64,000 bases of DNA from positions 18,468 through 82,467 of IMG/VR virus record IMGVR_UViG_3300015078_000001; one strand, 5' to 3'. The position numbers and the translations under genes are program-made. The notes under the pieces are model-generated. The model was not told the origin of the DNA, made no database searches, and saw only the letters and a list, made by a program, of their open reading frames with translations. Shown piece after piece: positions 6,697 to 45,566 of this stretch; position 1 is the stretch's first letter; each line of letters begins with the position of its first letter. This DNA comes from a virus.

Positions 6697-7031
6697 TAGG
6701 TCATCTCTTTAGCAAGATACTGATGGTTAGTTGTTGCAGCAACTATATTAATTTGCTCTACACTACACGGCCCGCTGTCACTGTCGTATGATCCACCGGG
6801 AAGAAGTTCGATACTTCCTCCGGTAGTTGAGCTGGCTCCACCTGTAAAGTTTATAAATAAGTTTTCGGCAGTACCTATTCCCTGACTGGTGGCAGTAGCC
6901 GGATTCTGAATAATCATTCTACGACGACAACCGTTGGCGGGAATCGCAATTTGAGATGTTCCGCCAACGACTATCTTACGAGACCAATCGGTATAAATAC
7001 CGGGAGTTAAATATACTTCATATGTGAGCAT
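6696..7031 (-). CDS. Probable structural protein
   Basis: 111 aa; RRRMIIQN and LFINF motifs; coupled to its neighbour. Confidence 0.45.
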   Translation of the reverse strand: MLTYEVYLTPGIYTDWSRKIVVGGTSQIAIPANGCRRRMIIQNPATATSQGIGTAENLFINFTGGASSTTGGSIELLPGGSYDSDSGPCSVEQINIVAATTNHQYLAKEMT

Positions 7032-7043
7032 CTTACTCCTTAA

Positions 7044-7718
7044 TTAAAGGGCTACTTCTTCCCACAGAAGACGACCAGCTACACTGTGAGTAACAGACGA
7101 TACAGTATTCAGAAGAGCCAAAACACCACCAGGAGGAACAATTAAGTTTCCGTCGAAGTTCTGTACACCATTAACCGAAGGAGTCGGGGTAGCAGCGGCA
7201 ACAGTAGTAGTCAGCAATCCGGATGCTGTGTTAAAATCAGCGGCATCAAAAACCACCAGGTTGTTAACTAACCCGGTCAGCAAACTAGCGGTAGACAAAG
7301 AGAATGCTTTGGCTTGCGAGCCTGTACTAGAAAGTGTTTTACGGTTAAAAGGAGCCAGACCAGCAGACAAGTTAGTATTGTTACCAGTAGAAGCCGCCCA
7401 GACAAACGCGCCGGGAGCGACAGAAGTAACGTTATTAATTTCATCAACCAGCATTGCCTGAAGAATACTAATATTAACGGGAGAGTTGGGAGGATTCCAC
7501 ACACCAACAATCGGCTGTGCAGAAGCGGTCAGAAGGATAGTTGCGGCGGATAGCGCAGTTAACTGGCATCCGATGGAGTACAAATTGCCGCGATAATTCT
7601 GTTCATAAAAACGTCCGTGAAGTTCAGAAACATCCATATCGCCCTGTTTACCAAGACGAACAGACTGAGTTGATCCATCGGAGAATTGCTGCGGGCCTAC
7701 AGTTCCTACAAATAACAT
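7044..7718 (-). CDS. Probable structural protein
   Basis: Start placed at MLFVGTVG (AAGGA RBS); Ala/Thr-rich; ends WEEVAL. Confidence 0.5.
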   Translation of the reverse strand: MLFVGTVGPQQFSDGSTQSVRLGKQGDMDVSELHGRFYEQNYRGNLYSIGCQLTALSAATILLTASAQPIVGVWNPPNSPVNISILQAMLVDEINNVTSVAPGAFVWAASTGNNTNLSAGLAPFNRKTLSSTGSQAKAFSLSTASLLTGLVNNLVVFDAADFNTASGLLTTTVAAATPTPSVNGVQNFDGNLIVPPGGVLALLNTVSSVTHSVAGRLLWEEVAL

Positions 7719-14143: not shown

Positions 14144-14149
14144 AATACT

Positions 14150-14178
14150 ATTATACACAGCCCACTAGTGCATGTCAA
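14150..14178 (-). promoter_or_regulatory. Consensus sigma70-type promoter driving the leftward operon
   Basis: TTGACA-17 nt-TATAAT, exact consensus on the minus strand. Confidence 0.85.
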
Positions 14179-15173
14179 ATCTAAGTTCCAGGGACGTTAT
14201 AAGGTAGTAGAAGTGTACCGTCCCAGATGGTACCTTATTAAAGGAAACAGGACTGGCTTGTACTTTTTGTATATTGGTGTATATTGGCGTATACCTGTGC
14301 AGGCCGAGGGTATTACCAAGTCACCCAAGCCCGCTCCCCCTACTCAAAGGGGGTTGATCCCCCTGCCTAGTCTAGCTAAATCGTAAAGTAGTACTCCCTA
14401 GATATAAATATAATCATATCTAAGACTTAGCTCAGGATATAAACCCGAGAATTCTCGCATTTTAGGCCAATTGGCGTATACTTGAGAAAACAGCTATTTT
14501 GTGAATATACAGTTTGGCGTATACTTTTGCGAATGACGTAAAACAGGGGAAAATAGAATGGAGTGGTGGACTAGGTAACCCTATGGTAATCCCATAGATA
14601 TATTTACGCTGATATCTACGCCAATTGTATATTTATACCTGTAATCGGACCGCGATTCCGCCTTTTCAACGCAATCCGCTGATTCCAAAGGCTTTACGCG
14701 ATATCGCCGAAACGCTCAAAACCTGTCAAGCCCCTTTTTTCGCTTTGTTTTGAATGAGTTAGAGCCGGTCGCCGAAACACCGTGCTAGATTGCATTCACC
14801 GCAACGGAGCAGCGGCAAACATGAAAATCACTATCTACCCCGACAATAAACAAAATATCCACGTATCTGAAGTGCTAGCAATGCCCGTACATATTCCGGT
14901 ATATTTTGAAGTGTTTAACGGGACATACGAGTATTACATTTACGTCTAGTCACTATCGGGCACACTCACCGAGTGTTTCCGAGTAGAAACTAGCGTCCAA
15001 CACTGGCTGAATGCAAAGAGACGGTCTGAGACACGGGGAATACCCCTTAGCATATCTCAGGCTGTTAGATGCCGTGAAAAACTGGTATAAGTCTGGTTTA
15101 CCTGTAGGGGAATACGCTTTGGGAAATAGTTAAAAGCCTTTGTTATCAGGCATTTAGCCTTCCCTTGATTCCG

Positions 15174-15622
15174 CCGGTATGTGTAAAGCCTTTACAGGGT
15201 GCATGTTAGTTAGCGGTCTCTGAGTCTAAACGGGATTACTCACGGTTACGACCGTCACCGTCACAGAGTCTGACATGTATCCTGTTAAGGTTTTACTGGT
15301 ATCATACCGGGGATAAGCTACTACGGGATGGAAGAGCATGACAGGGTAATCTCAATACCCTATGTGATTGAATAGACTTCGCCTATGGTTAAAGCGGATT
15401 TATAACCCGCCCAGAATCGGCCTGTATTTGAGCAACGGATACAGGCGTTATCCGGTTAGCACTATGCGAGTTAGGTCAATCCATGAGAACAAGCAATCCG
15501 ATTGTCGGTTGTGAACGGTCAACGGGAAACAAACCCGAAGGGCAAACCGAATGACATCTAGGATTTATCCTACACACTCGATACAGGATTACACACGGTG
15601 ATTACCGTGTCATGCTCTTCCA
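15174..15622 (+). ncRNA. Putative structured RNA with two long stems
   Basis: 15174-15208 pairs with 15271-15310 (G-U pairs); 15329-15350 pairs with 15601-15622 (22 bp, 1 mismatch); no ORF of 60 aa or more. Confidence 0.55.
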
Positions 15623-15649
15623 ATGGCAGTCTAACAGGGTAATTACCCT

Positions 15650-15841
15650 TTGGAGGATAGTTTGAGATATCTCGTAATCGCAGTATTGCTCATGTCCGCT
15701 ATGTGCCTGGGAGAGTCAAAGCAGATTCTTCAGGTGAAGAGAATTAACCCGTCGAATGTGGTTCTCTCCTGTGCCAACGGAGCTGATCCAACGGGGAAAG
15801 AGATAAGCAAGCATGTATTGCTTATCAGTTGCGGGGAATAA
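15650..15841 (+). CDS. Small secreted/membrane protein
   Basis: Signal-peptide-like LVIAVLLMSAMCLG; a GGAGG RBS points to a start a few codons into the ORF. Confidence 0.5.
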   Translation: MEDSLRYLVIAVLLMSAMCLGESKQILQVKRINPSNVVLSCANGADPTGKEISKHVLLISCGE

Positions 15842-16016
15842 ATAGTAAACACGGTGAAGTGATTACCGTGTTAGGCTGCTAAGTTCTTTCAAGTCTTAGG
15901 GAAATAGGTTCGCTATGATGTCCATTTACTGGACATGATAGGGAATCTACGGATATCCCAACGGGAGTAAACCCTAAAAAAATCAGGACATACGCAAGTA
16001 TGTGAAGTAAATTAAC

Positions 16017-16421
16017 ATGGCTAACCCGATTAACCCGACAACGGGCAAAGAATACACTATCGCGGAACTTATGGCGAAGGTCGCCGAACTTGAGGCCCAG
16101 GCCGCCGCGAAGAACACGCTTTTCATGGGTGTTTCCGAAGAGACCGGCGTTATCTGCTTGTACGGTCTTCAGAAATTCCCCGTTTCCCTTCACCGGGAGC
16201 AATGGGAACGTGTCATCTCTCCCGAAACCCAGGCACTGGTCAAAGGATTCATCTCGAATCCCGATGTGATCACACTGACGCCTGGCAAAGCAAGCGCCGA
16301 AGATGCCAAAAAGAACGCGGCTACTCTGCGCAAGGCAAGTCAGAAACAGCTCAACGGATTGCCGATTGTACGCCGGCAGTCCGCTGAAACCAAAGCGAAG
16401 TTTGCTAAGGCATCGGCGTAG
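16017..16421 (+). CDS. Early protein, coiled coil plus VSExxGVxxYGLxxFPVxLxxEQW family
   Basis: Motif GVSEETGVICLYGLQKFPVSLHREQWERV. Confidence 0.7.
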   Translation: MANPINPTTGKEYTIAELMAKVAELEAQAAAKNTLFMGVSEETGVICLYGLQKFPVSLHREQWERVISPETQALVKGFISNPDVITLTPGKASAEDAKKNAATLRKASQKQLNGLPIVRRQSAETKAKFAKASA

Positions 16422-16476
16422 TATTGTTAGGCCGGATACTAACCTATCCGGCTTATAGAGTACTATTCAAGATGTT

Positions 16477-16716
16477 ATGAACAACACAATCATGTCCCGT
16501 CCATTAAGCGGAAACGCTTTGTTAGGCGCAATCAGGCGCATTCAAAACCATTTTACCGGCGTACATCGGTACAGGCCGGTATGTGGTGCGGTCGCAGTAA
16601 CATTCGCCGATGGTATGACTTTTGCCCATCGGTCAGCCAGGGAACTTCGGCATATCAGGCCCGTAGCAGAACGTATCGACGCAGAGTACAAACGGCATAG
16701 CAAGGCGAAAGAGTAA
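16477..16716 (+). CDS. Hypothetical early protein
   Basis: 79-aa ORF flanked by long hairpins. Confidence 0.5.
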   Translation: MNNTIMSRPLSGNALLGAIRRIQNHFTGVHRYRPVCGAVAVTFADGMTFAHRSARELRHIRPVAERIDAEYKRHSKAKE

Positions 16717-17826
16717 CATGACGGAGCATATACTTCGCTGTATGCTTCGATGATATTACTCTAAATGGAGAAAACATGGAATATACAATAAGGGAATCTC
16801 AGCCTATGACGGATGATACTGTTACTTGTCCGCATTGTGGTGCAATAACCTGTATTGCAGTACCCTGCCCACGTTGCGGGAAAATCAGTTAGTCCAGTAA
16901 ATGGACATGGCCGATATCCTTCGGGGTATCGGCTTTCTTTTTGTCTGGAGTATTCGCTTTTTGTACGCCTGGCGGAAAACGCGCCAGGATGCCCTATAAA
17001 CGCTCGACAGCATTTTGAGCATGTACCCTGCGTGGATCAATGCAAACGGGCCTGTATCGGCCACGGAGGCATCAAAAACCCGTATCCTGGTGACCGATTG
17101 AACCCCTGCCGTTCACGTTCCGCCGAATGACCGCTAGAATTTCCCCTGAATTTCCATCCTACCTATACTCTATAAGTCAAGGTATTTATTCAAAATACCA
17201 TATAAAAATCCTCAAAATACTACAAATTGTATACAAAATATAGTTTTTTGTATATGTTTTATAATATATTCGATGCTATTATATAGCCCTGGCATAGTAA
17301 TAGCCGTGCCCTGGCCGGCGAGCCGATGTCCGGAAAATGGACATAAACCGAATCGAATCAGCGGTTTAGCGGCGATGCCGCACCGTCCTGAGCAATTTCA
17401 GGGCCAAAATCTGTCAAGCCCCAAACGAAAAAAAATTTCTCGTTTGTTTTCAACGGTTTACAGCCGAAAATTTTTTGCGGCTCCGTTGTTTGCAGTCGGT
17501 CGTGCGACAATGGTGTTGCGCCAAAGCCCGTGTATAGCAGGGCAGGGAAGGAAAGATGGCACAACCAATACGGGTAAGAGTAACTAAGCCGCTAATGAAG
17601 TCTACCTGGAATCCTGGTAAGATGAACAGGAAAATAAAGGTAAATGCGGCTAAGAACAAACTTAATGAGTTTGGGAATAGGGAGGCTGTAAAATGAATAC
17701 TAAAGTACTAGCCTTTGAAGAACGTAAATCAAGGTTTTTACTATACACTATGGAAAAACCTTATAAGTTTGTATGGGCGGAAAGTTTAGGATGTTGGATG
17801 GCGTTTAGGTTAGCAAACTTACCAGT

Positions 17827-18880
17827 TGTATGGTAGCCTGTACTTACAGGCAAGCTACAGGAATTAACTCCCTGTATCTTGCTGGTAAGTATAGATTAGT
17901 CAGCGCGGTACTTGAATCCTAAAGAGTATACCGGGTGTCTTACGAGACATAAAGCCTGGTATTCAGGGTGATAAATTCAGAGCACCCAACAAGTACAGTC
18001 CATACATTTATCCGGCCATAGGCCGTAGTATAGGGCAAAAGTAGCCGCTATCATACTTGCAAGTCACGGAAGTGGCGACCAATGATGGGTATAAACAATT
18101 TGTCTGGGGTACTTTCAGCGTAGCTTTTGCTTATTTCTCTACGTTCTTTCAGCCTTGAGACACCTGCAAACATAATCCCGATTAATTCGGAATTGCACTA
18201 GTGTGCATATTGCATGTTTATATCTATCATTGGTTGCCATTTCGCAGGCATTCTATGATGTATACAATCAATATCAGGGTTATCTTATCACCTCCTAATG
18301 TATAATCCCTGTATTTGAGTTAAACTCCTCCAATAGTGCGGATAGGACTTCACTATTGCAGTGATTGTATATATCATAGAGTGCCTATTTATGGCGTTCT
18401 ATAGAGTAGATAATAGGGTCGTTAGCGGAGAAATTACCAGCAAGTGCGTAGGAAAACGGTAGTAAGCTTCGTAAGATATCCATTGATTGAATTCCTACCT
18501 TTGAGATATTCACTATTGTCTATTCTATAGAGCGTCATACGTGGCGAGGTAGTTTAATTCTGTAACAATGCTATACGGCAATTAGGGGAGCCGATAACCA
18601 CTCCATTAACATCAGGTTATCATACTTACCTAATATCAGGTAGAAAACATTGTCAGCTAAATTAGAAAGGGTCTGTCCCTTCTAGTCCTGGCAACAAGAT
18701 TCTGTCGGCTGTATAGATCAGGAATAGAATTGGCTATCTTTCCGGGCTGCTCCTGATTATAATTAATCGAGAGGCCGTTTAACCGAGTGTAGGTTTAATG
18801 CTATAGGCATATAGATTGCCGATAGTATACTCTATACTCAGTTAAGCGGCCTTTCTTTTGGTTATAACAGGGCAGCCTAG
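17827..18880 (+). ncRNA. Putative giant structured non-coding RNA locus
   Basis: About 1.05 kb with no credible ORF; four long duplexes of 25-30+ bp, many short hairpins, an 11-bp long-range pairing; wobbles are G-U on the + strand. Confidence 0.7.
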
Positions 18881-18994
18881 AGAAGGGAAGCCTTGAGAGG
18901 TAACGACTGCCGGGAGACCGAAAACGATACTTCTCCCCTTCCTATGAGCAATTATGTCCAGAAAATGGACAGATTGTTGATAGGAGAGGAAAAT

Positions 18995-19478: not shown

Positions 19479-20009
19479 CAGGAACAGGGATTAAGTTCCC
19501 TGTCTCCTGCTGAGATGTCCATTTACCGGACATTTGAGCAGGAGGGAGTATGAAGAAGATTATCACTATTTCATTTACTTATAACGATCCAAAGCACTTG
19601 GATAACAGCGTAATTGAAATGCTGCACATTCTCTATAGGGGAATAGTTACTACATTTAACTGGTTTATTGCTTCATCTTTTAAGGTTAGAGATGAAGAGT
19701 AGTTTCTCGACTCAGCCTATTATATAGTAGGCTGCGATGGGGGAATTATGAGAAAATTTGCAGTAGAGATCACTCTGTCCGATGAAGATGTACAAGCAAT
19801 AGCAAATAGCTATGGGGAAAAGAATCTGTCCGATTCTATCCTTCGTCATGACGTACAATCTGTGTATGAGGATCACGTTGAATTAGTAAAAAGCAGGTAG
19901 TATGAAATACTCTCATATTCATGCTTCTGACCATCTTACCTAATTGAAAAGAAGTTTAACATAGTAATTTTTGAAGATTACAGACTTTATCAAAAACCCT
20001 GGAGGTAAT

Positions 20010-20453
20010 ATGAACGCACAAATTGAACAAGCCCTGAAAGATTGTAGAGAAGCCTGGGCACAACATCCCGAAGCAACTATCGCCTGGTGTTGTCACCATG
20101 AAGTACAGATTGAGCCGTTAGCCTTTCCTGTTGAAGAACGTATTGAGTATATTTTAAACAATAAACCTGAACAGGAAAGAGTTTTACGGTTTACTAATTT
20201 CCGACCTTTTATCGGTACGCTACCGAGAGGAATGCAGAAAGCTGATGCTGACTGGCAGAAAGCTTATGCTGACCGGCAGAAAGCTTATGCTGACCGGCAG
20301 AAAGCTTATGCTGACTGGCAGAAAGCTGATGCTGACTGGCAGAAAGCTGATGCTGACTGGCAGAAAGCTTATGCTGACTGTAAAGATGAAATCAACGTCC
20401 TTCATCAACAGCAAGTTCCAAACAATACCTGGAACGGAAAGAGTATCTTTTAG
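20010..20453 (+). CDS. Hypothetical protein with heptad repeats (QKAY/DADW/R)
   Basis: GGAGG RBS; seven 7-aa repeats. Confidence 0.75.
   Translation: MNAQIEQALKDCREAWAQHPEATIAWCCHHEVQIEPLAFPVEERIEYILNNKPEQERVLRFTNFRPFIGTLPRGMQKADADWQKAYADRQKAYADRQKAYADWQKADADWQKADADWQKAYADCKDEINVLHQQQVPNNTWNGKSIF
20234..20380 (+). repeat. 7 x 21-bp in-frame tandem repeat
   Basis: GCAGAAAGCT(G/T)ATGCTGAC(T/C)G x7. Confidence 0.95.
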
Positions 20454-20693
20454 CTAGTTTTTCGACCTAACTTTAATTTATTAGAGTTAGGATGGAGGAA
20501 TTACCTATGTCACCTAACTATAAACAACGTCGTGAACTGAAACACGCAGAGTATAACCGTTTGCGTAGCCTTAACGTCGGAACCAAAGATATGTCGGCAA
20601 GGTTGGGTAAGGGAAGATGCAGGCAAATGATTCAGAAGATTAAGTAGTTTTTCGACCAAATACATATTTATTGTGTATTTGGATGGAGGAATT

Positions 20694-21358
20694 ATGAAAA
20701 CAAGAACAAAAGTAAAGAACGCGCTATCAACTGTCTCCGATATGATGGTAGGAGATTTGGGAGGGGAAGAGAGTAAGTTTTGGCATATTATCTCAGCCCT
20801 TCGTGGGCCTGATTTGGATAGTCATGTAATATATAAACTGTCCGAAACAGAAACTATATATGCAGATCAATTGAAAGAAGCTGTTACCGCAGTAATTCGA
20901 TATAATCTTGGTCTTTTCCAGGATAATTCCGGAGGATGTATCGTTCGTACAGATACTGAAGAGTTTGCGGAGATACGTAGGAAATTTAACAAGGGTGGGC
21001 ACGATATCTGCCGGCATTTTCTTTCCCACTCTAGGTTGGCTTTTGAAGCTCTTGATCTTAAATGGGATGAAGTTAATCCCGATCTTCAGGGAGAAATTAG
21101 TTATAAGGTTTAGGAGAAAAGATGATTTTAATGATAACTATTGAAGAAATTTGTGAAAAGGGTTTGTGGGATGAATACTGTGAACTATCAGGCACTAATG
21201 TTTGGGCTAGAAATGAAGGCCAGATATTAAGTACTGATACAGTTAACGTCCCTGAAAGTATGATCTGTAAGTTTATGCCATACCGAGAATATGTAGAAAA
21301 AAGCCGAAGAGAGTGTGGTTGCGGCGGGTTTCATGCCGGTTTTGAAAGATGTGATTAG
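20694..21358 (+). CDS. Two hypothetical genes (20694-21113, 21122-21358)
   Basis: ORFs with RBS. Confidence 0.6.
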
Positions 21359-21421: not shown

Positions 21422-22051
21422 ATGATTGTTGGAATGAATACAGGTAACACCGCGCTTCAGACTGTTTTGGCTGCTTTGCAAACTTCAACCTTTACCTTTC
21501 AGCTTACAGGTAGCAGGTATTTCCAAACTCATAGTGAGTATTCTGACTACGACTTCTTTGTGCAGGATGATCTTGGAAGTCATTACGGTACAAGCAGTGT
21601 TCGTGGTTTTCTGTACGAGAATGATTTTAGCCATGAGTTTGTATCGAATATGGATTACAGTGACGACAAGTCTGTTAATGATGTTTATAAACATTCTTGT
21701 GGTGTTCATATCCAGATAGTGAAAGATTTTAAGGTGAAAGAAGCTGCTCAGATTGAGTTGTTTGTTAATGGAGTAGGTCTTTATCTTCGGGATAAGAGTT
21801 TTGCCAAAGTATTGTGGAAAATGGCTATTACTTTTGCTGAGAGAAATAAGCCCGTAAAGCCCATTACGGCAAGTTATTTGTTCAATGATGATGCCTTGGC
21901 TATTATCAGAGAGGTGTATCCCGTTTTTCCGGGGTTTGGGAAAACGAACAGTTTGTCAGCCAATAAAATTTCAGCCATTGGGCTTCATAGAAGGCTTACT
22001 GGTATGGGATTAAGAGAAAGCAAAGATGAGGTTGAATCTCTTCTGAAATAG
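21422..22051 (+). CDS. Nucleotidyltransferase-like domain fused to a ribosomal L7/L12 CTD-like domain
   Basis: LTGSRYF...SDYDFF (GS...DxD) and C-terminal NKISAIGLHRRLTGMGLRESKDEVE. Confidence 0.6.
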   Translation: MIVGMNTGNTALQTVLAALQTSTFTFQLTGSRYFQTHSEYSDYDFFVQDDLGSHYGTSSVRGFLYENDFSHEFVSNMDYSDDKSVNDVYKHSCGVHIQIVKDFKVKEAAQIELFVNGVGLYLRDKSFAKVLWKMAITFAERNKPVKPITASYLFNDDALAIIREVYPVFPGFGKTNSLSANKISAIGLHRRLTGMGLRESKDEVESLLK

Positions 22052-22096
22052 TCTTGACGTAGTGTCCATTTACTGGACATTACGATGAGGATTATT

Positions 22097-22405
22097 ATGA
22101 AACTATGGTTAGATGATATTCGTGATCCTTTAGAATATGGTGCTATCGGTTTTATATGGGTAAAGACAGTAGAAGATGCTATCACTATGCTTAAAACAGG
22201 TGAAGTGTCTTTTGCTTCTTTAGATCATGATTTATCTATACTAGCTACATTAGGTAATTTTGAGAAAGAACAAACAGGATACGAATTAGTTTGCTGGATG
22301 GAAGAAAATAATGTTTGGCCCGTAGATGGGGTAAGAGTACATTCTATGAACCCTATCGGTCGTCAAAGAATGGAAAAGGTAATAAGAAGAGCTTATGAAA
22401 CCTAA
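22097..22405 (+). CDS. Cyclic-phosphate-processing receiver-domain protein
   Basis: LWLDDIRDP, SLDHDL, TGY and HSMNPIG motifs. Confidence 0.75.
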   Translation: MKLWLDDIRDPLEYGAIGFIWVKTVEDAITMLKTGEVSFASLDHDLSILATLGNFEKEQTGYELVCWMEENNVWPVDGVRVHSMNPIGRQRMEKVIRRAYET

Positions 22406-22564: not shown

Positions 22565-22804
22565 ATGAGCGGAACTATGAAAATGAAACACCCTAAACGG
22601 GGTGGGTGGAAAGGTGCTAAGAAGTCCCGGCGTAACTTTGATTCTGCTGTTGCTTTTAAAGAACATCAGAAGAAAGATAGAAAGAAGCAGGTATGGGTTG
22701 TATCTCCCGTAGGTATTAGGGAAGAATGGTTGGAACCTGGTAATTTTTGCAATGAAAAAGGTGTACGAAATCTTATGCCTTTGCGTACTAAGGTACCTGC
22801 ATAG
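22565..22804 (+). CDS. Basic hypothetical protein
   Basis: 79-aa ORF ending at a family B hairpin. Confidence 0.5.
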   Translation: MSGTMKMKHPKRGGWKGAKKSRRNFDSAVAFKEHQKKDRKKQVWVVSPVGIREEWLEPGNFCNEKGVRNLMPLRTKVPA

Positions 22805-23081
22805 TTTTGATCCTGTGTCCATTTTCTGGACATAGGGCTGAGAACTAAGGAGGAATTGTGGAAATAACAGAAGTAGATAATTTGATATTCAACATGGCTT
22901 CAGGTCTTTTACCAGAAGATTTGACAGAACATGAAGTATCTCTTTTGCGTACTATGTACGGTGAAAATTGGTTTGAGAATATGGGCTATACCGAGCCTAA
23001 GTATAAAAAGTCAGTTTATTAGTTTTGACTTAGTGTCTAGGAAATGGACATTAAGATGAGAACTAATGAGAATTAGTTTAT

Positions 23082-25357: not shown

Positions 25358-25714
25358 ATGTCACAGCCTACGTATGAAGAACTTCTGGCGAGAGTAAAAG
25401 AACTGGAACAGGCCGGCAAGAAGCCTGGTATCCGTAAACCTATTGAACTATTCGTAACTCCTGAAGGTCTTCTTCAGGTAAGGAATGTGCTGAAGAATGG
25501 TACGGCACATAATCTGGAACCCGAAGTGCCAGAAGTATTGTTTAACCATGCTCCCGCTATTTTGGAGTTTGTTAAGAAGCATTCAGATATCCTTACCTTT
25601 GGTACCGATACTGAAGAAGTACAGGTAAGTAAGAGTAAGAAACGTCAAACTCTAGTTAACGCGGGTAGTTTGATTGTTCGTAAACCAAGGGAAAAGAAAG
25701 AAGTTGCTGTCTAG
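25358..25714 (+). CDS. Paralog-like relative of the 16017-16421 protein
   Basis: MSQPTYEELLARVKELE coiled coil, followed by a beta-rich segment and a similar C-terminus. Confidence 0.6.
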   Translation: MSQPTYEELLARVKELEQAGKKPGIRKPIELFVTPEGLLQVRNVLKNGTAHNLEPEVPEVLFNHAPAILEFVKKHSDILTFGTDTEEVQVSKSKKRQTLVNAGSLIVRKPREKKEVAV

Positions 25715-25756
25715 CTTCGACTCGGTACACTTTTAGTGTACCGCGATGGAGGCTAT

Positions 25757-26101
25757 ATGATTACTTTGGCAACATTGGCCACAGCAACTAAACAGGAAGT
25801 GTTCGACCAGGTTAAAAACCATCTTCTTTCTCAAAAGAAAAAGGCAGTTAGTGAATATGGTAGCTGCTATTACAGAGTATTGAAAGACGGTAAAATACTC
25901 AAATGTGCCGGAGGGTGTCTTATCGCAGATGATGAGTATAACCCACATATGGAAGGACGTTTGTGGGGTACTCTTCCAGATATTACAGATTACCATGCAG
26001 AGTTTATTTCAGAACTTCAACAGATACATGATAAAAATGATCCTGATAAATGGGAAGGATTACTGAAAATTGCAGCTACGAAGCATGAATTAGCGTTTTA
26101 A
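25757..26101 (+). CDS. Hypothetical phage protein
   Basis: CYYR...CAGGCLI motif; GGAGG RBS. Confidence 0.65.
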   Translation: MITLATLATATKQEVFDQVKNHLLSQKKKAVSEYGSCYYRVLKDGKILKCAGGCLIADDEYNPHMEGRLWGTLPDITDYHAEFISELQQIHDKNDPDKWEGLLKIAATKHELAF

Positions 26102-26413
26102 TTTCGATTCAGCCTATAGTTATATAGGTTGAAATGGGGGTTAAAATGGGCGTATCTAATTCAATAGTTGAATCTATAGATTCTAAAACTCATATAGGGT
26201 GTCCGGGTGTTTTAGTAATAAGTACAGAATATACAGAAAAGGGCGAAAAATTTGATGAAAGATGGTACCAAATTGAAGCAGATAAAATTACTACTTTTTT
26301 AATACGAATTTTTAGTATTAAAACTATACGTTGTATTGCAAAAAACCTTGAACATTATTTATAGTCTTTCGAGCAAATGTCCATTTTCCAGACATTTGTT
26401 GGGGAGATTAAAA

Positions 26414-27085
26414 ATGTTAATAGGTAGAGGAAGACATGAAGAAGTGATGGGATATCAGTTTCAGGACCATGGCTTATTTACCAAAGCTTTAACTCATAAA
26501 AGTTTTAGCTTGTTAAATAACGAAAAGCTTGAATTTCGGGGTGATTCTATCCTCGATTTTGTACTAACAGACTGGTTGCTTACTAAGTTCCCTGATAAGT
26601 CCGAAGGTGATTTAGCTAAGCTATGGGATAGAATGGCATCGGCCCATAATCTTGCGAGAATTAGTAAAGAAATTGGTCTGGATAAGTGGATAATTAAGAA
26701 GCAGCATGTACCTATATCCGATCAGTTACTTGCCGATACACTAGAAGCTGTTATCGGAGCTATTTATCTTGACGGAGGATTAGAACCTGCTACTTTGTTT
26801 ATCCATAGATGGGTTACTAACATCATACCCGAATCTGTAGACTATAAAACTCAGTTACAGGAAAAAACCCAGGCGTTTGGATATACCCCTGTATATGAAA
26901 CAATACAAAATACAGCTTCTCAGGGAAATAGATTGGTATTTACGGCTAAACTAGAAATTCCCCAGAGAGTTGTTCGGCGATATGATGGCGAGCTACATGA
27001 CGTTGTTATACGGTTTCTTGCAGAAGGTTATACCAAGAAAGAAGCAGAACAGAACGTAGCTAAAAAAGCTTTGGAGGTATTATGA
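26414..27085 (+). CDS. rnc: Ribonuclease III (catalytic domain plus dsRBD)
   Basis: ALTHKSF..NNEKLEFRGDSIL, ADTLEAVIGAIYLDGG, DYKTQLQE, GYTKKEAEQNVAKKALE. Confidence 0.93.
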   Translation: MLIGRGRHEEVMGYQFQDHGLFTKALTHKSFSLLNNEKLEFRGDSILDFVLTDWLLTKFPDKSEGDLAKLWDRMASAHNLARISKEIGLDKWIIKKQHVPISDQLLADTLEAVIGAIYLDGGLEPATLFIHRWVTNIIPESVDYKTQLQEKTQAFGYTPVYETIQNTASQGNRLVFTAKLEIPQRVVRRYDGELHDVVIRFLAEGYTKKEAEQNVAKKALEVL

Positions 27086-33262: not shown

Positions 33263-35366
33263 ATGAGTTTTAATGTGAAGTTGTTTGATAAAGTAGTAAA
33301 GCACGTAGTAGAAGTTCCTGACCGACTTGCTATGGGCGTTCCTGTAGAAAAAATTAATGAAGATGGTTGTGTAGTCGATTATACAATAGGTAAAACTGTA
33401 GAAGTTCGTCCTCCTTGTGGAACAGCAGGATGTTTTGGAGGATGGACTGTTCTTCTTGGAGAACCGGGAAGAATGAGAGATAAAGTTAATAAGTGGTCTG
33501 CTAAAGGATGGATGTCCGTTTCGAAGGTTGCGGCTAACTTGCTCGGAATTGAAGAAGGGATTTTAGACGATAAACTCTTTCATGTATATAAATGGCCTGA
33601 GAAATATGGTAAAGCCTGGAAGAAAGCTCGTAAACCTTCTGACCGTGTAGCTATCTTTGCAGAACGTGCTGCCCAATTCAGGGCGTGGGCGTTAGAAGAA
33701 GGCTTGTAGTAGTAAAACCTTGCCGATGTCCGGAAAATGGACATCGTGGAGGGTCTATGGCTTGCGATTTATATGAACATATACCTTATACGTATTTAAG
33801 AGTAGAGTTAGCTGAAATAGATGCGATGAAAGTACAGCACGCCAGAGTATACGGTATCTGTAGAAAATGTCAAAGCAAATATTTGATTGGAAAAATACAT
33901 GTTCCTAAACTTCCTGCGTAGTCCGGAAAATGGACTACTGGAGGAATGTCATGAAACATTTCTATTTGCGCGATAAACATAGAAGGCCCGTTGGCTGTGT
34001 AGTCAGTCAGCGATTCGAAAATAACAAATTAGACGTGGTTATGTTTGCCGTATCCGCACATAATCCCTTAGACCGTTTCAGCAGGAAAGAAGCGTTTGTA
34101 GAAGCAGTACGAAATTTTGAAAAGAACGGTGTTATTCTTCCTACCAGGAAGGGTATTAAGATCGACATCATGAAAACTATTGTAGAGCATCCGGTATTAT
34201 TCCCACAGCGTACAAGAGATGCGGCTAAACTATGGTTGAAAGAGCATTCTAATTCCGCTAAAAATGGCTCTTATGTTGAGTGGCTCGATAAGAACGGAAT
34301 AACGTAGTATGCCTGAACCTATACTTAAAGATCATGGAGACGGGCACTATGCAATTATAGCGGATAATTGTATAATTCGTCTTCCTGCTGACGGGTCTAT
34401 TCAAATAGACCCTATGATAGATGGCGCAGTAGATATCAGTCTATACGATTGTTGTGTATCTATTACTCAGCGTAATTCTGAACTAGAACAATGGCCGTAT
34501 ATGAGAATCATAACAGAAGAGGAAAAAGATGCCTAAACCATCCTTAAAAGAGCCGTTCAGGTCTTTGGAATGTGCTATAATTGAAACTCTTATAGCAGGT
34601 CATAAAGAGTGGCGTCCCGATCTTTCTTACCCTGAAAGTCATTCAGATATGCAGGCAGCGGTAAGAGGATTACTTCGTATGTTTGACGTAAAACGCAGAC
34701 CGATTGCGTTAGAATCAAAAGACCTGATAGATATGGAGGATTAGTGAAAAAAGTATTGTATTGTGCAATGGAATATGGTGAATTTGAAGATTTAGTAAAG
34801 AAAGAATATGGCCAAGACTACGAGTTTGTGCCTGATATTGAATGTGGAAATGATTCCGATCATTCTTATAGTATAGAAAAAGAAGAATTAGATAGTTGGG
34901 ATGCTAAGTCGATAGAAGAGTTTAAGTCAACCGGAAAATATAGTTTTATGGCTAGACGATTACTTCAGGATTTGGTCAATAATGATAAACTTCCTGAAGG
35001 TGATTTTCTTATAACTGTGTCGTGGTAGCTTCGGGGGTATCTCAGGATACCTACGGGGGCTCAACTCTCGTTGGAAGAAATTCCGTAAAACATTTTAAAT
35101 TGGAGAACATAATTATGTCGAGTATCACTACTGTAAAGACCACTAAGACCGTCTCGAAGCCTTCTTTCACCTTTTCCGGATTTTCTGTCGGCCAGGCTTT
35201 CTTGCGTCCCGATACCGGAAACGTGTATCTGAAGACCGATTCGAATACTGCGGTTAAGATTGGTCAGGTTGGAAATAATGAGTTTAAGCAGCGTACCCGT
35301 TCGGGTAGCTATTTCGACAACCAGGCTGTTGTTCCTGTCGATGCTACTCTGACGATTGCGGTCTAA
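33263..35366 (+). CDS. Cluster of small hypothetical genes
   Basis: ORF track (33263-33709 with CGTAGCFGGW; 33951-34307; 34309-34536; 34529-34744; 34744-35028; C-terminal part of 35022-35366). Confidence 0.55.
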
Positions 35367-35400
35367 TCCTACCGAAGGGGAAACCCTTCGCGGAGGACGC

Positions 35401-38400
35401 ATGAATGACAAGTTTTTAGGTTCATATGATACTATAACTAATCCAGCAAAGTTGGATTTAGATTCGATAGAGCAATCATTAAAATTAATAATGAATGCTC
35501 CGAATGCTGATTCACTACAAAACTGGACTCAGTCTAAACTTATAAAAATACCCGATGATCCCTGGATCAGCTCTAATAGTGTAAAAAAACAAGAATCTGA
35601 TGTGCCTAGTACTATTCTTGATTTAGTGCCTGGATCAGTCCCGGAAGATTGGCATCATCATATCAATCTTTGTGATAGAGTTGGCGGACTTAATTTTTTA
35701 GGGGGTGGAATTCCTGTACAAGGTGGGTGGATTTATAAAAATACCGTTGTACATGAATCCGCCATAATTGGGTCTGATTGCGCTGTATACGATAACGCTG
35801 TAATAGGTGTAAATGTTCAGATATTTAATAATTGTAAAATATACGGCAATGCTAAGATTTTAAAAGGTATAATTTACAATAAAGTAAAAATATATGGCGA
35901 TGTAGTGATCGATAACAGCAGTATGATGAGTGTTAACGCACCGTATATACACCATAACGTAGAAATTTTCGGGAATGTAAGTATTTTTGGAGATTGTTAC
36001 GTCAGAGACGACAGTAAAGTTTATGAAAATGTCGTTATCAGACAAGATGTCAAAATTATTTCTTCAAAAGTATGTGGAAACGTCACTCTTTGTGATAATT
36101 CATACGTAAGCCGAAGCGATGTCTCAGGTACGGTAGTATTATTTAAAAATGCTTGTATAGTAGACTGTACTTTTATGGGTAAAGATTTTATATGTACAGA
36201 AGGTGTTATATATAGCCAGGAACAGGATGAAAAATACAGGTTAAAACCAATTTTATATAGAACTCAAAAGGCTAAAGGTCTTAAAGTTTTAATGAATTTT
36301 AATTTGTTAGATTCTTCTACTAGTTCTATTTTTGATATAAATACAGTTGAGCCTTGCGTACTATGTAAGAAGTTTGTACGTCCGTGTCCGGTTACTCCCC
36401 GACACGGTTTTGTCGATTCAAGGGTTGTTAAAACGATAGAAGAAGCGACAAAACTAATCGAAGAAACTAAACTTGCCGATCCAGAAGCGGAAATTATAGC
36501 TATGATTGCTTATGATCCGCCTTATTCCGGTGTATGGACACAGGGTAAAATTACTATCGGGCCTGGTAATGACGGGGCTACTTCAGGAAAAGATACCATA
36601 ACTATCCCTATTTCAGGAAGTATTACATATCCTGAAAAAATGGCTGTTATGTGTAAATATGCCGGGGTTACAGAATCTCCTTATGTGGAAATTTTATGGC
36701 TATCAACCTCTACTTATCACGGGGGTAATTATAATAACATATTTGCTCCAATATATGTTCAGTTAAGAGATGGCCCTAAACTTCCAGTTACTGTTGATTT
36801 TATACCTGAAGAATTTACAGTATCTTCTGTTGTTTTAGCAGAAGGAAGTCTTCTTGAATGGGAAGAAAAAGTAAAGACGTTTACACCCGGAACAGTTGTA
36901 TACCATCCCGGAGGCAGTCTTTCCAGCCATTATTCCGTACACTGTGTTTTGAATAACATCCCCGTTCTTATTAGTAAGCAGCCTAAAATCGAGGATAAGA
37001 TAAGGCCATGTCAGAATCAAAATTTTATTATGGATTCTGAAAAAATCAGGCAAGGGTTTGTATACTCCCTTACTTACGATATATCATATATGTCAGCTAC
37101 GTATATGATGCTCGTAGGGTGCCATTCTATATACGATTGGCGGGGAAAAGAAGATTTCCTGCTTGGATTTAGTTTAGGATGTGCGTTTCGGCTGACAGTA
37201 ATAGCCGGAGTAGCGGAATATCGTCACTACCACCATATTAAATCCATAGACGGTGAAAGAAGTACCGTTTATGATAATTTATGGGAATATACCGCGAAGT
37301 TTAGTACCCGCCATATGTTTTTGGAAGCATTAAAAGCCTTTAAAAAAGGTCCAAAACCAGGTTCTGGAGGCATCGGCGGGCCTAAATGGTATGATTATGG
37401 TATTCATGCTGTTGAAATCATGAACTATTTAATTCAGAATGATATTTCTAAATCATTTGAAGTACTGAATACTCTGATTAATGCTGTTCATAACGGTGGA
37501 TGGGGGTTTAATAAATTTGCCAATCAGTCTGATCTGGATGATGCAGCGGCCTCCCCTTCTATAGTTATGATGAAAGTAGCTCCGATTTTATATGAAATTA
37601 AGAAGCATGTCCGGAAAATGGACACGGTTGAATTTCAAAATCTGAGCAAATTCTTCGTAAATCGTAGAAAATGGGAACTTGATATGAGTAAGAGTATAAC
37701 TCAGGTCAATACTGATATCTGCGGATGCGAGGAACATGAGTGTCTTGTATGCTATCCTGAAGGCTGTAAGTGTAAGAGTAAAACATGTCACGATTGTGGT
37801 ATTTGTGGTAAGTGCTGTACTTGTAATAAATGTTTTTGCTTAAAATGTAAGCCTGAAGGTTGTAAATGTAAAAATAAATCGTGTCATGATTGTGACAACT
37901 GTGCGAAATGCTGCGGGTGTCAGAAACACGATTGTATTAAATGCTATAAATATGGTTGTGGTTGTAAAAGTAAAAAATGCCATGATTGTAAGCTTCCCGA
38001 TTGTATATACTGTACTAAAAAGAGTAAGATAACAGAAGTTCAGGCCAGAATACTTGGTAAGTTTATTCTTATTCATTATAAACGACAGGGTGCATCTGGA
38101 TATGAAACCATAAAGAAAGAAATACCGATCAATAATCTGGATAAAATAAAGTTGTGGATTAGTGAAAATAGTACTTCTTCTTCGTGGACAGATAGTACTA
38201 CGGTTATGTATGCTCCCGGTGTATGGAAATATACTACTTGGATGCTCGGGCCGTTTGCTGTCGAGTTACCTTTTCCTTTGGGTAGTTGCGGGTGTGATGG
38301 CCATACCTGTGTTATATGTTACCCTAAAGGCAATTGTCCGTGTAAAAATAAGTATTGCCACGATTGTTATAATCACTGTTGTCTGTATTGTTTTCCTGAC

Positions 38401-38601
38401 GGTTGTGCATGTAACTGTAAAGATTGCCATAAAATACCGTGTATATGCGACGTTATTGACGATGATTACTGCGGATGTCACGATCATGACTGTTCTAAGT
38501 GTTTTCCGGACGGATGTGACTGTTCCTGTGATAGTTGTCATGATGACGGATGTGATAATTGTATAACTCCGGACGAGCCGGAAGAAGAGGTAAGTTACTA
38601 A
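35401..38601 (+). CDS. Giant multidomain protein: left-handed beta-helix, PEP-utilizer-like phosphohistidine domain and Cys-rich repeats
   Basis: Hexapeptide repeats (AIIGSD, AVIGVN, VQIFNN); GTVVYHPGGSLSSHYSVH...NNIPVL; repeated CGCxxHxCxxCxPxGCxC units. Confidence 0.65.
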   Translation: MNDKFLGSYDTITNPAKLDLDSIEQSLKLIMNAPNADSLQNWTQSKLIKIPDDPWISSNSVKKQESDVPSTILDLVPGSVPEDWHHHINLCDRVGGLNFLGGGIPVQGGWIYKNTVVHESAIIGSDCAVYDNAVIGVNVQIFNNCKIYGNAKILKGIIYNKVKIYGDVVIDNSSMMSVNAPYIHHNVEIFGNVSIFGDCYVRDDSKVYENVVIRQDVKIISSKVCGNVTLCDNSYVSRSDVSGTVVLFKNACIVDCTFMGKDFICTEGVIYSQEQDEKYRLKPILYRTQKAKGLKVLMNFNLLDSSTSSIFDINTVEPCVLCKKFVRPCPVTPRHGFVDSRVVKTIEEATKLIEETKLADPEAEIIAMIAYDPPYSGVWTQGKITIGPGNDGATSGKDTITIPISGSITYPEKMAVMCKYAGVTESPYVEILWLSTSTYHGGNYNNIFAPIYVQLRDGPKLPVTVDFIPEEFTVSSVVLAEGSLLEWEEKVKTFTPGTVVYHPGGSLSSHYSVHCVLNNIPVLISKQPKIEDKIRPCQNQNFIMDSEKIRQGFVYSLTYDISYMSATYMMLVGCHSIYDWRGKEDFLLGFSLGCAFRLTVIAGVAEYRHYHHIKSIDGERSTVYDNLWEYTAKFSTRHMFLEALKAFKKGPKPGSGGIGGPKWYDYGIHAVEIMNYLIQNDISKSFEVLNTLINAVHNGGWGFNKFANQSDLDDAAASPSIVMMKVAPILYEIKKHVRKMDTVEFQNLSKFFVNRRKWELDMSKSITQVNTDICGCEEHECLVCYPEGCKCKSKTCHDCGICGKCCTCNKCFCLKCKPEGCKCKNKSCHDCDNCAKCCGCQKHDCIKCYKYGCGCKSKKCHDCKLPDCIYCTKKSKITEVQARILGKFILIHYKRQGASGYETIKKEIPINNLDKIKLWISENSTSSSWTDSTTVMYAPGVWKYTTWMLGPFAVELPFPLGSCGCDGHTCVICYPKGNCPCKNKYCHDCYNHCCLYCFPDGCACNCKDCHKIPCICDVIDDDYCGCHDHDCSKCFPDGCDCSCDSCHDDGCDNCITPDEPEEEVSY

Positions 38602-43082: not shown

Positions 43083-43340
43083 ATGCATATAAAACGATTC
43101 TTTTGCTTTGAATGCAGACCTTATAGATGGTTCCGTCGCAGAAGAGATTTAAAAAATCATATGATAGATGGTGCTCACCGAAGAGGTCAATATATGATGT
43201 TTCTTACTGAAAGAGCAATAATGAGAAAACATACTTCTGCGGCTAAATGGCTTAGAGTAGAGAACAAACGATCCGATCATTGGTTTGAGAATAGCGAAGT
43301 TTTAGAATTTAGGTGGTGGGGTAGAAGGAAAAAGAAATGA
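43083..43340 (+). CDS. Basic hypothetical protein
   Basis: 85-aa ORF with RBS immediately after a dyad site. Confidence 0.5.
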   Translation: MHIKRFFCFECRPYRWFRRRRDLKNHMIDGAHRRGQYMMFLTERAIMRKHTSAAKWLRVENKRSDHWFENSEVLEFRWWGRRKKK

Positions 43341-44347
43341 TAAACATCTCGATTGACTTTGAAAGCGCGTCATCTGTTGATCTATCCGTATGCGGCTTAG
43401 ATAGGTATGTTACAGATAAATCAACTAAAATTTTGATGATGGCGTATGCTTTTGAGGATGAATCTGTACAGATATGGGAACCGCACAAAGAGAAATTTCC
43501 TGACCGAGTATTGAAAGCTTTCTATGATTCTGAAGTAACTATATTTGGGTGGAATGTAAGCTTTGAACGGCAGATACTTGCATATTGTTTAGGTCATGAA
43601 CTTCCGTATGTTAAATTCAAAGATTCTATGGTCATGGCCCGGTATATGGCTTTACCAGGGTCGTTAGATGAATGCGGAAGTGTGTTAGGAATTGATACTA
43701 GCCTTCGGAAGATGCAGAATTCTGATAGATTGAAAGATATGTTTTGCCTACCAGCTAAAGAAGGTGGAGAAGAAACGCTTTTCGGTATATCTGAAGATGT
43801 GTTTCGTACACATGAAACTAATCCTGTTGAATGGCAGGATTTTGTCTCATACTGCAAACAAGACGTAGTTGCAGAACGTGCTATTAAGAACAGATTAAAG
43901 AACTTCCCTCTCCCTGAACATGAATGGGAGGCCTGGTACTTAGATCAGGAGATAAATGAGCGGGGAATAGCCGTAGATATGGAATTAGTTGAAGGTGGTA
44001 GCTATATTGCGGGTATAGATAAGCAAAGACAATTAGATAAAATACAATCTATTACTAAACTTGATAATCCTAACAGCCGAGATAAAATTCTTCAATGGTT
44101 AAGAGACCGTGGCTACCCTTTTCATGAATTAGGAAAAGCTTTCGTAGCTAGAGCTTTGGCTGAGAAAAATGAAATGACTGACGAAGCTAAAGATATTCTT
44201 TTATTAAGACAAAAATCAGCTAAAACTTCATCACAAAAACTTATCAATATAGCTAATCAAGTTAGTAATGACGGACGTTTACGCTTTCAATATAGTTTTA
44301 TGGGTGCGAGCCGAACCGGAAGATTTTCATCAGGAAGTGGAGAATGA
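43337..44347 (+). CDS. polA: DNA polymerase family A, N-terminal part (3'-5' exonuclease plus thumb)
   Basis: ISIDFES (ExoI), WNVSFER (ExoII), YCKQDVVAE (ExoIII); ends GASRTGRFSSGSGE. Confidence 0.88.
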   Translation: MINISIDFESASSVDLSVCGLDRYVTDKSTKILMMAYAFEDESVQIWEPHKEKFPDRVLKAFYDSEVTIFGWNVSFERQILAYCLGHELPYVKFKDSMVMARYMALPGSLDECGSVLGIDTSLRKMQNSDRLKDMFCLPAKEGGEETLFGISEDVFRTHETNPVEWQDFVSYCKQDVVAERAIKNRLKNFPLPEHEWEAWYLDQEINERGIAVDMELVEGGSYIAGIDKQRQLDKIQSITKLDNPNSRDKILQWLRDRGYPFHELGKAFVARALAEKNEMTDEAKDILLLRQKSAKTSSQKLINIANQVSNDGRLRFQYSFMGASRTGRFSSGSGE

Positions 44348-44532
44348 TACTTTACGCAGCAACTTATTACGAAACTGATGGGTATACCTATGGTGTAGAA
44401 ACAGTTCTAGCAATTTGTGATAGCAAAAGTAAAGCAGATGAAGTGTGTTTAAAAGATAACGAAGTTTATCCCGCAAGAGATTTAACCTATTATGAGGTTA
44501 AAGAATTCGAGATTAACCAACTGTGGGAATAA
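44344..44532 (+). CDS. Small ORF inserted within the polymerase gene
   Basis: 62 aa; ATGA overlap with the upstream stop and overlap with the downstream GTG start. Confidence 0.65.
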   Translation: MILYAATYYETDGYTYGVETVLAICDSKSKADEVCLKDNEVYPARDLTYYEVKEFEINQLWE

Positions 44533-45566
44533 ATGTTCAAAATTTAGTTCGACCAGGAAGTGAAGTATCTAAAAACTTAGAAGAAGCTATCTCTCTTGTG
44601 AAGGCAAAAGACCTTGAAGGTATTCAGAAAAGATTTAAAACTGAGCCGTTAGATTTAGTGGGAAGTCTTATCCGATCAGTTTTTGTCGCACCTAAAGGTA
44701 AAAAGCTAGTTATATGCGACTTATCGGCGGTTGAGAATAGAGTTTTAGCTTATATTTGCGACGCACCTTCTATCTTAAAAGTATTTCAAGATAAACTTGA
44801 TCCGTATGTATATTTTGCTGTTGATCTTTATAACGAACCATACGAAGTTTTGTTAAAAGATAAACAGAAAAGACAAAATGCTAAACCAGCAGTTTTGGGC
44901 GCAGGATACGGATTGTCTGGTGGAGAACAGATTACTTCCGATAATGGCGATATCGTTTTCACCGGACTCATGCAATATGGGCGTTCACTAGGAGTGGAGA
45001 TATCTAGGGAACTAGCTCACAAATCTGTAGAAGTATTTAGAGAGAAACATCATGAAGTGGTTAGTTGCTGGTATGCTTTAGAAAAAGCAGCTACTAAGTG
45101 CATTCTTACTAGACAGCCACAAATAGTCAATATAGTTAAATTTAGTATGGTAGAAGATGTTATGTGCATAACTCTTCCTAGTGGCAGAGATTTACACTAC
45201 GTTTCTCCTAGAATAATAGACGATGTTTGGCCTAATGGTAGAAAGAAAAAATCCATAGAGATTTTCGGTATGGATTTAGTTACTCATGTTTGGAACAGAA
45301 CTAGAACTTATGGTGCCAAAATTTTGGAAAATATTGACCAAGCTATATCGAGAGATTTGTTAGTAGAATCCATGTTTAATGCCCGAAAAATGGGATTTGA
45401 TATAGTTATGCATTCGCACGATGAGTTGGTAACAGAGGTAGAAAAAGATTCAAAACTAGGGATTGACCAACTACGTTCTTGTATGATACAATCTCCTATA
45501 TGGAGTAACTCTAATTTAATTTTAGACGCCGCTGGATTTGAATCAAAAATTTACAGAAAAGAGTGA
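44523..45566 (+). CDS. polA: DNA polymerase family A, C-terminal part (palm/fingers)
   Basis: INVQNL, motif A ICDLSAVENRVLA, motif B RQNAKPAVLGAGYG, motif C MHSHDELV. Confidence 0.9.
   Translation: MGINVQNLVRPGSEVSKNLEEAISLVKAKDLEGIQKRFKTEPLDLVGSLIRSVFVAPKGKKLVICDLSAVENRVLAYICDAPSILKVFQDKLDPYVYFAVDLYNEPYEVLLKDKQKRQNAKPAVLGAGYGLSGGEQITSDNGDIVFTGLMQYGRSLGVEISRELAHKSVEVFREKHHEVVSCWYALEKAATKCILTRQPQIVNIVKFSMVEDVMCITLPSGRDLHYVSPRIIDDVWPNGRKKKSIEIFGMDLVTHVWNRTRTYGAKILENIDQAISRDLLVESMFNARKMGFDIVMHSHDELVTEVEKDSKLGIDQLRSCMIQSPIWSNSNLILDAAGFESKIYRKE

Follow-up and report, generated by a model that had tools for sequence, protein, structure and literature searches.

A bacterial-type RNase III gene and RNase III-sized RNA stems in the early gene block of an uncultured soil phage

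Phages T7 and lambda borrow the ribonuclease III (RNase III) of their host, and bacterial RNase III cleaves nearly any double-stranded RNA (dsRNA) helix of about two turns. The host enzyme acts at sites in T7 early mRNA, at rRNA stalks and in the leader of its own gene, rnc; in Escherichia coli, it autoregulates by cleaving a stem-loop in that 5′ leader. RNase III genes are also carried by eukaryotic viruses, among them chlorella virus PBCV-1, ascoviruses, iridoviruses and sweet potato chlorotic stunt virus, and eukaryotic viruses use RNase III against dsRNA-based defence. Here, we analyzed a 64,000-nt window (bases 18468-82467 of the 109,031-bp virus record IMGVR_UViG_3300015078_000001) from an uncultured soil phage that carries an rnc gene of its own. 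Long RNA stems lie upstream of this gene, on the same strand and in the same early gene block (Table 1; positions are those of the window). Overall, a rare phage RNase III beside RNase III-sized helices is well supported, and a functional link between the two is a reasonable, unproven proposal.

The rnc reading frame opens with an ATG at 26414, 6 nt behind a Shine-Dalgarno (SD) sequence (GGGGAG, 26402-26407), and its stop codon (27083-27085) overlaps the ATG of the next gene. Domain analysis of the encoded protein, Rnc, revealed two nuclease families and a dsRNA-binding family (Ribonucleas_3_3, PF14622, 2.9e-25; Ribonuclease_3, PF00636, 2.3e-20; dsrm, PF00035, 3.6e-8). The motifs EKLEFRGD and ADTLEA provide the catalytic residues E37, E40, D44, D108 and E111, which together with E64 are invariant in an alignment with relatives and bacterial homologues and are numbered almost identically to those of Aquifex RNase III. 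The same alignment places F41 at the "ball" residue of the RNase III dimer junction. In an AlphaFold2 (AF2) model built on that alignment (mean predicted local distance difference test score 88), residues 144-223 form a single C-terminal dsRNA-binding domain (dsRBD) of alpha-beta-beta-beta-alpha topology (helix 144-153, strands 161-167, 174-187 and 194-205, helix 208-222), in which the helix motif K208-K209-x-A-x-Q is retained. Foldseek matched the model best to the Aquifex enzyme (2ez6_A, E 3e-14) and to that of E. coli (7r97_A, 4.9e-14), and the nuclease domain alone to 3o2r (template modelling score 0.89; root-mean-square deviation 1.6). Rnc is thus almost certainly a bacterial-type RNase III. 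Sequence, conservation and fold support both this identity and a likely competence, and catalytic activity is very probable. A preliminary description of this DNA, made from its letters, had called the protein a full RNase III that keeps its acidic catalytic residues and has FRGD in place of FLGD; both statements hold.

Compared with class-1 enzymes (E. coli, Aquifex aeolicus, Campylobacter jejuni), Rnc has the same plan: one nuclease domain with the signatures E-x-x-E-F-x-G-D and A-D-x-x-E-A, one C-terminal dsRBD, a length of about 220 aa and the same fold. It differs in being phage-encoded, in sharing at most 39% identity with any cellular homologue found and in three features common to its closest relatives. 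First, the signature motif reads EFRGD in 5/5 proteins of the Rnc clade, with R42 where a conserved Leu is expected, whereas EFLGD stands in the remaining 115 of the 120 best homologues. Second, all five carry a 12-25-residue extension that in the model lengthens the dsRBD beta2-beta3 hairpin. Third, the His of the bacterial GPxH loop is replaced by Asn in all five. The RNase III proteins of eukaryotic viruses are likewise virus-encoded and class-1-like; they differ in serving eukaryotic hosts, where several suppress RNA silencing. To our knowledge, no RNA-silencing pathway is described for the host of this phage.

The substitution beside the catalytic Asp could mean that Rnc is a dsRNA binder whose cleavage activity is lost or poor. 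Such a change is unusual, as Leu stands at this position in all 115 non-clade proteins of the best 120 and in the aligned Drosha chains. However, the five clade proteins, at 57-78% identity, retain all active-site residues, which indicates purifying selection; an inactive binder would not need the metal-binding acidic residues that all five keep. We consider a loss or weakening of cleavage very unlikely.

Phages with an RNase III of their own appear to be rare. Among 5.8 billion proteins, only four close relatives of Rnc were found (59-76% identity), all on similar phage contigs; beyond these four, identity does not exceed 39% and the matches are cellular RNase III of mixed phyla. We compared three of the four relatives' contigs, L001 (100.8 kb), L002 (16.7 kb) and L003 (6.9 kb), and all three are syntenic with the window. 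The rightward early block of these uncultured phages, a small clade with genomes of about 100-110 kb found in soil and fresh water, keeps the gene, and a 118-aa protein adjoining rnc was found solely in this clade. In PHROGs, one small family holds such proteins and is labelled "unknown function". A search of IMG/VR found no relatives of Rnc, megablast of 26-30 kb against GenBank phages found no DNA-level similarity, and a literature search found no paper describing a phage-encoded RNase III.

Searching 50,697 GenBank phage records with Rnc (tblastn) gave 13 weak matches, of which only the best was examined. It was rejected, because it lies in a lepA-lepB-rnc-era-recO block and is bacterial DNA: the record filed as "Acinetobacter phage MD-2021a" (CAKLQF020000007.1, 96049-108684) is a segment of bacterial chromosome carrying nadB, degQ, lepA, lepB, rnc, era, recO and pdxJ. 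Several other GenBank "phage" matches to RNase III are unannotated contigs and may represent similar contamination.

We scanned the + strand of the whole 109 kb for contiguous helices of Watson-Crick and G.U pairs (span limit, 450 or less) and compared the result with ten dinucleotide shuffles. Helices of at least 16 bp number 14, against 5-12 in the shuffled genomes, and uninterrupted helices of at least 25 bp number only three, in tandem at 18069-18539. Interrupted long helices are confined to two loci free of open reading frames (ORFs), at 15.17-15.62 kb and 17.83-18.88 kb, which fold far better than their shuffles (z of -6.6 for 15.17-15.62 kb; -10.6 and -9.9 for 17.8-18.9 kb). The scan thus places the long duplexes in these two loci and at early gene junctions, not genome-wide. 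Every duplex that the preliminary description had listed, at 15.2-15.6, ~16.42-16.47, ~16.71-16.76 and 18.0-18.9 kb, was recovered, but its picture of a genome rich in 22-30 bp duplexes was not borne out by these counts, the three longest sharing a single locus. A permissive scan for hairpins of at least 18 pairs did not discriminate, as it counted 83 on the + strand against 58 on the - strand.

The three tandem modules of the second locus are paralogues, sharing a stem base (5′ GGCRYYCTATGRWG) while their loops differ. Neither locus matched a family in Rfam 15, where only tRNAs reached the gathering score; between 12.3 and 20 kb nothing besides tRNAs had an E-value below 0.59. The loop of module 2 contains CCUCC-type motifs complementary to SD sequences (18281-18331); L001 retains the CCUCC of the first and has CUCCUAC in place of the second. 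To judge from this complementarity, the motifs could pair with ribosome-binding sites of mRNAs.

Several lines of evidence indicate that the long stems act as RNA from the + strand. First, wherever the three perfect helices depart from Watson-Crick pairing, the + strand has G.U (10/10 positions), where the - strand would have A.C mismatches, an asymmetry with p ~0.001 by our own calculation if transitions hit either arm at random. Second, over the 1.1-kb locus, folding of the + strand is favoured over that of the - strand by 84 kcal/mol, against 29-37 for two coding controls of similar length. Third, L001 is collinear with the window over 14149-18885, and in an RNAalifold consensus of the two, 29/248 pairs have changed on both sides and still pair, while substitution has broken none; the three unpaired cells are alignment gaps. 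Eight of these double changes fall in the module 1 helix, which L001 keeps, and the irregular hairpin at 18744-18880 is likewise kept there through double changes and exchanges between G.U and G-C. The core that precedes module 1 is 95-100% identical between the two phages, compared with 45-90% for their proteins, and L001 carries insertions of 20 nt and 51 nt in it, which shows that it is not coding. A lake-water metagenome contains fragments of a relative, as short contigs 95-99% like parts of the RNA with little coding DNA recovered; in one 3′ arm of this relative, 2/3 listed changes convert G.U to G-C.

These results bear on whether the inverted repeats are instead DNA elements, for example an origin of replication, a signal for injection or packaging, or insertions with terminal inverted repeats that resemble miniature inverted-repeat transposable elements (MITEs). 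Genes run leftward to ~14 kb and rightward beyond, the GC skew changes sign there, and the repeats lie near this switch, adjoining AT-rich palindromes at 17204-17270. Moreover, modules with a common stem base are present in one relative and absent from another, as in mobile elements. Yet DNA elements account neither for the exclusive G.U asymmetry nor for the compensatory pairs, and unpaired segments of the RNA are also highly conserved. We therefore reject the origin and MITE readings on the strength of the asymmetry and the compensatory changes, and DNA elements of any kind appear highly improbable.

A second class of RNase III-sized structure occurs at the gene junctions leading up to rnc. 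Folding the 75 nt upstream of each + strand ORF with an SD (an SD-centred, energy-filtered table) revealed, at a folding free energy (dG) of about -20 kcal/mol or stronger, eight junctions within 19.7-26.4 kb whose SD-occluding hairpins measure 18-24 bp (dG -19.7 to -28.3); the last of these hairpins is the rnc leader. Each of the seven others begins at or beside the upstream stop codon. Downstream of rnc, the equivalent hairpins measure 11-17 bp and occur at 13 of ~20 junctions; L001, L002 and L003 show the same length split around rnc. In orthologous junction hairpins of L001 and L003, the upper stems differ and still pair. Together with two hairpins at 16.4 and 16.7 kb, the eight have the size and layout of T7-type sites, and a two-turn length restricted to the hairpins up to rnc is compatible with such sites. 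Like the host RNase III sites of T7 early mRNA and of the lambda N leader, they are irregular intercistronic hairpins of about two turns with a single small interruption; here, however, the nuclease would come from the phage itself, each hairpin starts at the stop codon of the preceding ORF and masks the SD that follows, and cleavage is putative.

The rnc leader is an RNase III-sized 5′ stem-loop conserved among relatives. In all four loci, the SD lies in a lower stem of 9-10 bp, followed by one mismatch and a covarying upper stem of 10-14 bp; the total is 19 bp in the window and 22-24 bp in each of L001, L002 and L003. As the preliminary description had proposed, the window's hairpin (26362-26410) pairs the SD of rnc and bears a dyad, GTCC-N-GAC, in its upper stem. 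The E. coli rnc gene similarly has a stem-loop in its leader that its product cleaves. The phage hairpin, which sits directly before the rnc start codon, differs in not being an rnc-specific operator, since the same design precedes at least seven other early genes.

This layout invites a different explanation, in which the junction hairpins, the rnc leader included, are devices for translational coupling or mRNA stabilization rather than nuclease sites. A ribosome ending at the upstream stop would melt the lower stem and free the next SD. In 4/4 orthologous leaders, the upstream stop forms the first 3-4 nt of the 5′ arm (TAG, 26362-26364, in the window), and the 3′ arm contains the SD, with 3-6 nt between it and the start codon. 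Because the stop codon sits in the hairpin arm, a terminating ribosome would open the stem, and coupling can thus explain the hairpins without a nuclease. Furthermore, the design recurs at ~20 junctions, and the 13 hairpins downstream of rnc are, at 11-17 bp, too short for canonical RNase III. What coupling leaves unexplained is the length of 18-24 bp with a conserved single mismatch up to rnc, and the shorter stems after it, in all four loci. Coupling accounts for the junction hairpins at least as well as RNase III cleavage does, and we give it an even chance; it concerns these hairpins only and could hold together with processing of the long stems.

A 19-nt quasi-palindrome, ATGTCC followed by ATTTWCC (or its complement GGWAAAT) and GGACAT, recurs in ~30 copies in the 109 kb (window 2419-60725 and beyond), in both orientations and mostly at the tips of junction hairpins. 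In the orthologous rnc leaders, the tip of L003 is the exact reverse complement of the window's, and that of L002 lacks the dyad; small inversions thus turn the element around, and the hairpin does not depend on it. This pattern speaks for a protein-binding site in the DNA and against a signal in an RNA loop.

By analogy with the processing of T7 and rRNA precursors by the host enzyme, we tentatively favour, as the likeliest role of the phage RNase III, processing of the phage's own early RNA through the long stems. One long early transcript would start near 17.3 kb, cross the 1-kb structured RNA and reach ~20 small genes and rnc. Neither a convincing terminator nor a strong promoter was found on the + strand at 19-36 kb, which would allow the structured RNAs and rnc to lie on a single early transcript. 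The phage enzyme would cut the G.U-containing helices of 22-34 bp in the loci at 15.17-15.62 and 17.83-18.88 kb, and these cuts would detach the structured RNAs from the downstream mRNAs. Probable further targets are some of the 18-24 bp hairpins between early cistrons, and a cut in the hairpin before its own gene would place rnc under feedback control. A phage gene would guarantee RNase III activity whatever the host supplies. The link between enzyme and stems is plausible and fits their size, position and co-conservation; we infer both that cleavage of the stems takes place and that it is the work of the phage enzyme rather than that of the host. Taken as a whole chain, the proposal falls somewhat short of an even chance.

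Several observations weigh against it. Any host RNase III would be expected to cut the same helices, so that a phage copy is not required, and the Leu-to-Arg change lies in the signature motif, adjoining the catalytic Asp, of an enzyme whose activity is predicted only. Both rnc and the stems occur on every contig that covers the region, but these are just two, the window and L001, and searches by protein, RNA sequence and hairpin pattern found no close relative without rnc. The rnc leader has the layout of translational coupling, which needs no nuclease. Moreover, no sequencing run recorded as RNA contains the stretch. Release of loop RNAs is also poorly matched by the way in which the units evolve. 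The 22-bp helix of the first locus (15329/15600) is not recognizable in L001; module 3 is cleanly absent there (junction 3801/3802); the module 1 loop is unrelated between the two phages; and a lake-water contig joins 15182 to 15297 through 15 other nucleotides that replace 15183-15296. The lake-water relative is thus without the inner 26 bp of the 15174-15312 hairpin and keeps its outer stem only. Stems are often better conserved than the loops they enclose, a poor fit to the release of functional loop RNAs.

In L001, the 15174-15312 hairpin retains its stem sequence and has a divergent tip, and the stem base of module 3 is nearly the same as that of module 1 in L001, as if the long-stem units were duplicated, swapped or lost as modules. 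The better-kept stems and the gain and loss of modules suggest that selection on long helices with a particular base sequence seems at least as strong as selection on the enclosed RNA. In architecture, the locus resembles the stalks of rRNA operons, the polycistronic snoRNA precursors that yeast Rnt1 cuts and the pri-miRNA clusters that Drosha cuts, as tandem long helices enclose structured RNAs of ~100 nt within a longer transcript. The phage units differ in matching no Rfam family, in enclosing RNAs less conserved than their stems and in varying in number. RNase III processing of polycistronic snoRNAs is among the topics cited in PMC12045711.

Alternatively, Rnc may act mainly on other RNA, attacking host rRNA or mRNA during takeover, removing sense/antisense dsRNA that arises in infection (for instance to escape a host reaction to dsRNA) or substituting for an absent or inhibited host enzyme, with the stems part of an independent structured RNA that happens to lie nearby. 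The gene sits among ~60 small early genes of unknown function without a dedicated partner, 0/7 of its small neighbours match Pfam, and the stems are 7.5-11 kb away. The eight tRNAs and the RNA ligase of the phage also show a more general investment in RNA metabolism, and the use of RNase III against dsRNA-based defence by eukaryotic viruses offers a precedent. On the other side, the sole available relative covering both regions (L001) keeps rnc and the stems together, and any active class-1 RNase III in the cell would cut uninterrupted helices of 25-29 bp. On balance, we consider a main action on other RNA rather unlikely.

A further extension of the processing proposal is that a re-tooled RNase III, with R in its catalytic signature and a longer dsRBD hairpin, and a matching, expandable tandem array of long stems, with GGCRYYCTATGRWG and its partner at the stem base, constitute a dsRNA-processing module of the phage's own, whose array would be diced into small RNAs or short duplexes acting on host or phage expression. 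We regard this as unlikely; if true, a virus of bacteria would have its own version of a pri-miRNA or snoRNA cluster, complete with the processing enzyme. Processing of the early RNA by Rnc, if confirmed, would reveal a self-sufficient RNA-maturation module in a virus of bacteria and open a way to learn what a large structured RNA without an Rfam match does. If the enzyme instead clears dsRNA, then dsRNA would be something that the phage must control in its host. In addition, ways in which the specificity of RNase III can change might be learned from the FRGD variant and the extended dsRBD.

Further searches for relatives gave little. Exact patterns from the RNA found no match, either for a 32-mer of its core in viral contigs or for a 21-mer in metagenome contigs. 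A junction-hairpin pattern had seven matches in viral contigs, all rejected as chance, since none folds as a junction-type hairpin and none has proteins in common with this phage; a stricter version had no match in metagenome contigs. A neighbouring 160-aa protein was discarded as a handle: it has 110 homologues, but the four long contigs examined are unrelated phages with different neighbours. Likewise set aside was the nearest other phage, a 98-kb IMG/VR contig without rnc (terminase 48% identical), which is GC-rich, shares structural genes alone and is uninformative on co-occurrence.

Table 1. Positions of rnc, the RNA stems and related features in the window
Feature	Position	Strand	Description
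Long interrupted hairpin, first ORF-free locus	15174..15312	+	~34 bp including G.U pairs
Helix, first ORF-free locus	15329-15351/15600-15622	+	22 bp and one G.G mismatch; encloses 248 nt of structured RNA
Intergenic hairpin	16416..16468	+	21 interrupted bp; dG -29.5, z -5.3; directly past the stop of ORF 16017-16421
Intergenic hairpin	16710..16762	+	21 interrupted bp; dG -22.2, z -3.9; after ORF 16477-16716
Hairpin opening the second ORF-free locus	17838..17895	+	22 bp, interrupted; kept in L001
Structured RNA core	17903..18068	+	95-100% identity to L001
Module 1	18069-18097/18215-18243	+	Uninterrupted 29 bp (25 Watson-Crick and 4 G.U); 117-nt loop
Module 2	18246-18270/18362-18386	+	Uninterrupted 25 bp (23 Watson-Crick and 2 G.U); 91-nt loop
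Module 3	18390-18416/18513-18539	+	Uninterrupted 27 bp (23 Watson-Crick and 4 G.U); 96-nt loop
Irregular hairpin	18744..18880	+	~50 bp; dG -80.8, z -11.8
Seven further SD-occluding hairpins	19699-19749, 20452-20506, 20644-20695, 22047-22096, 22796-22853, 25712-25755, 26094-26148	+	18-24 bp
rnc leader hairpin	26362..26410	+	9 + 10 bp; dG -22.2, z -4.75; SD GGGGAG paired
rnc	26414..27085 (including stop)	+	223-aa class-1 (bacterial-type) RNase III
Quasi-palindrome examples	15919, 22063, 26378, 28878, 33727

The complete DNA was found in a single sequencing run, a soil metagenome. The gene content of the phage includes a large terminase, a split family-A DNA polymerase, a clamp loader, an RNA ligase, ERF and exonuclease recombination genes and eight tRNAs. 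Between the two ORF-free loci, a strong intrinsic terminator with an 11-bp GC-rich stem lies at 16909-16934 (to 16943 with its T run); the AT-rich run of overlapping palindromes at 17204-17270 begins ~270 nt past it and precedes the second locus. Probably, one early unit ends at the terminator, and the AT-rich run holds the promoter region of the unit that follows.

Farther along, the family-A DNA polymerase is divided between two ORFs, 43337-44347 and 44523-45566 (336 and 347 aa, by PHROG matches), separated by ~180 nt and a 62-aa ORF. A 1081-aa protein (35356-38601) has PHROG matches that are all of unknown function and is 54% identical to its counterpart in L001 and 40% to that in L002; the 445-aa protein after it shows a weak match to the thymidylate synthase family. 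In L001, a TnpB/IS605 OrfB gene with a Cas12f-like TNB domain (6360-7445, - strand) is inserted among the early genes. Its flanks match the window genes that end at 22051 and start at 22395, between which the window has no TnpB gene.

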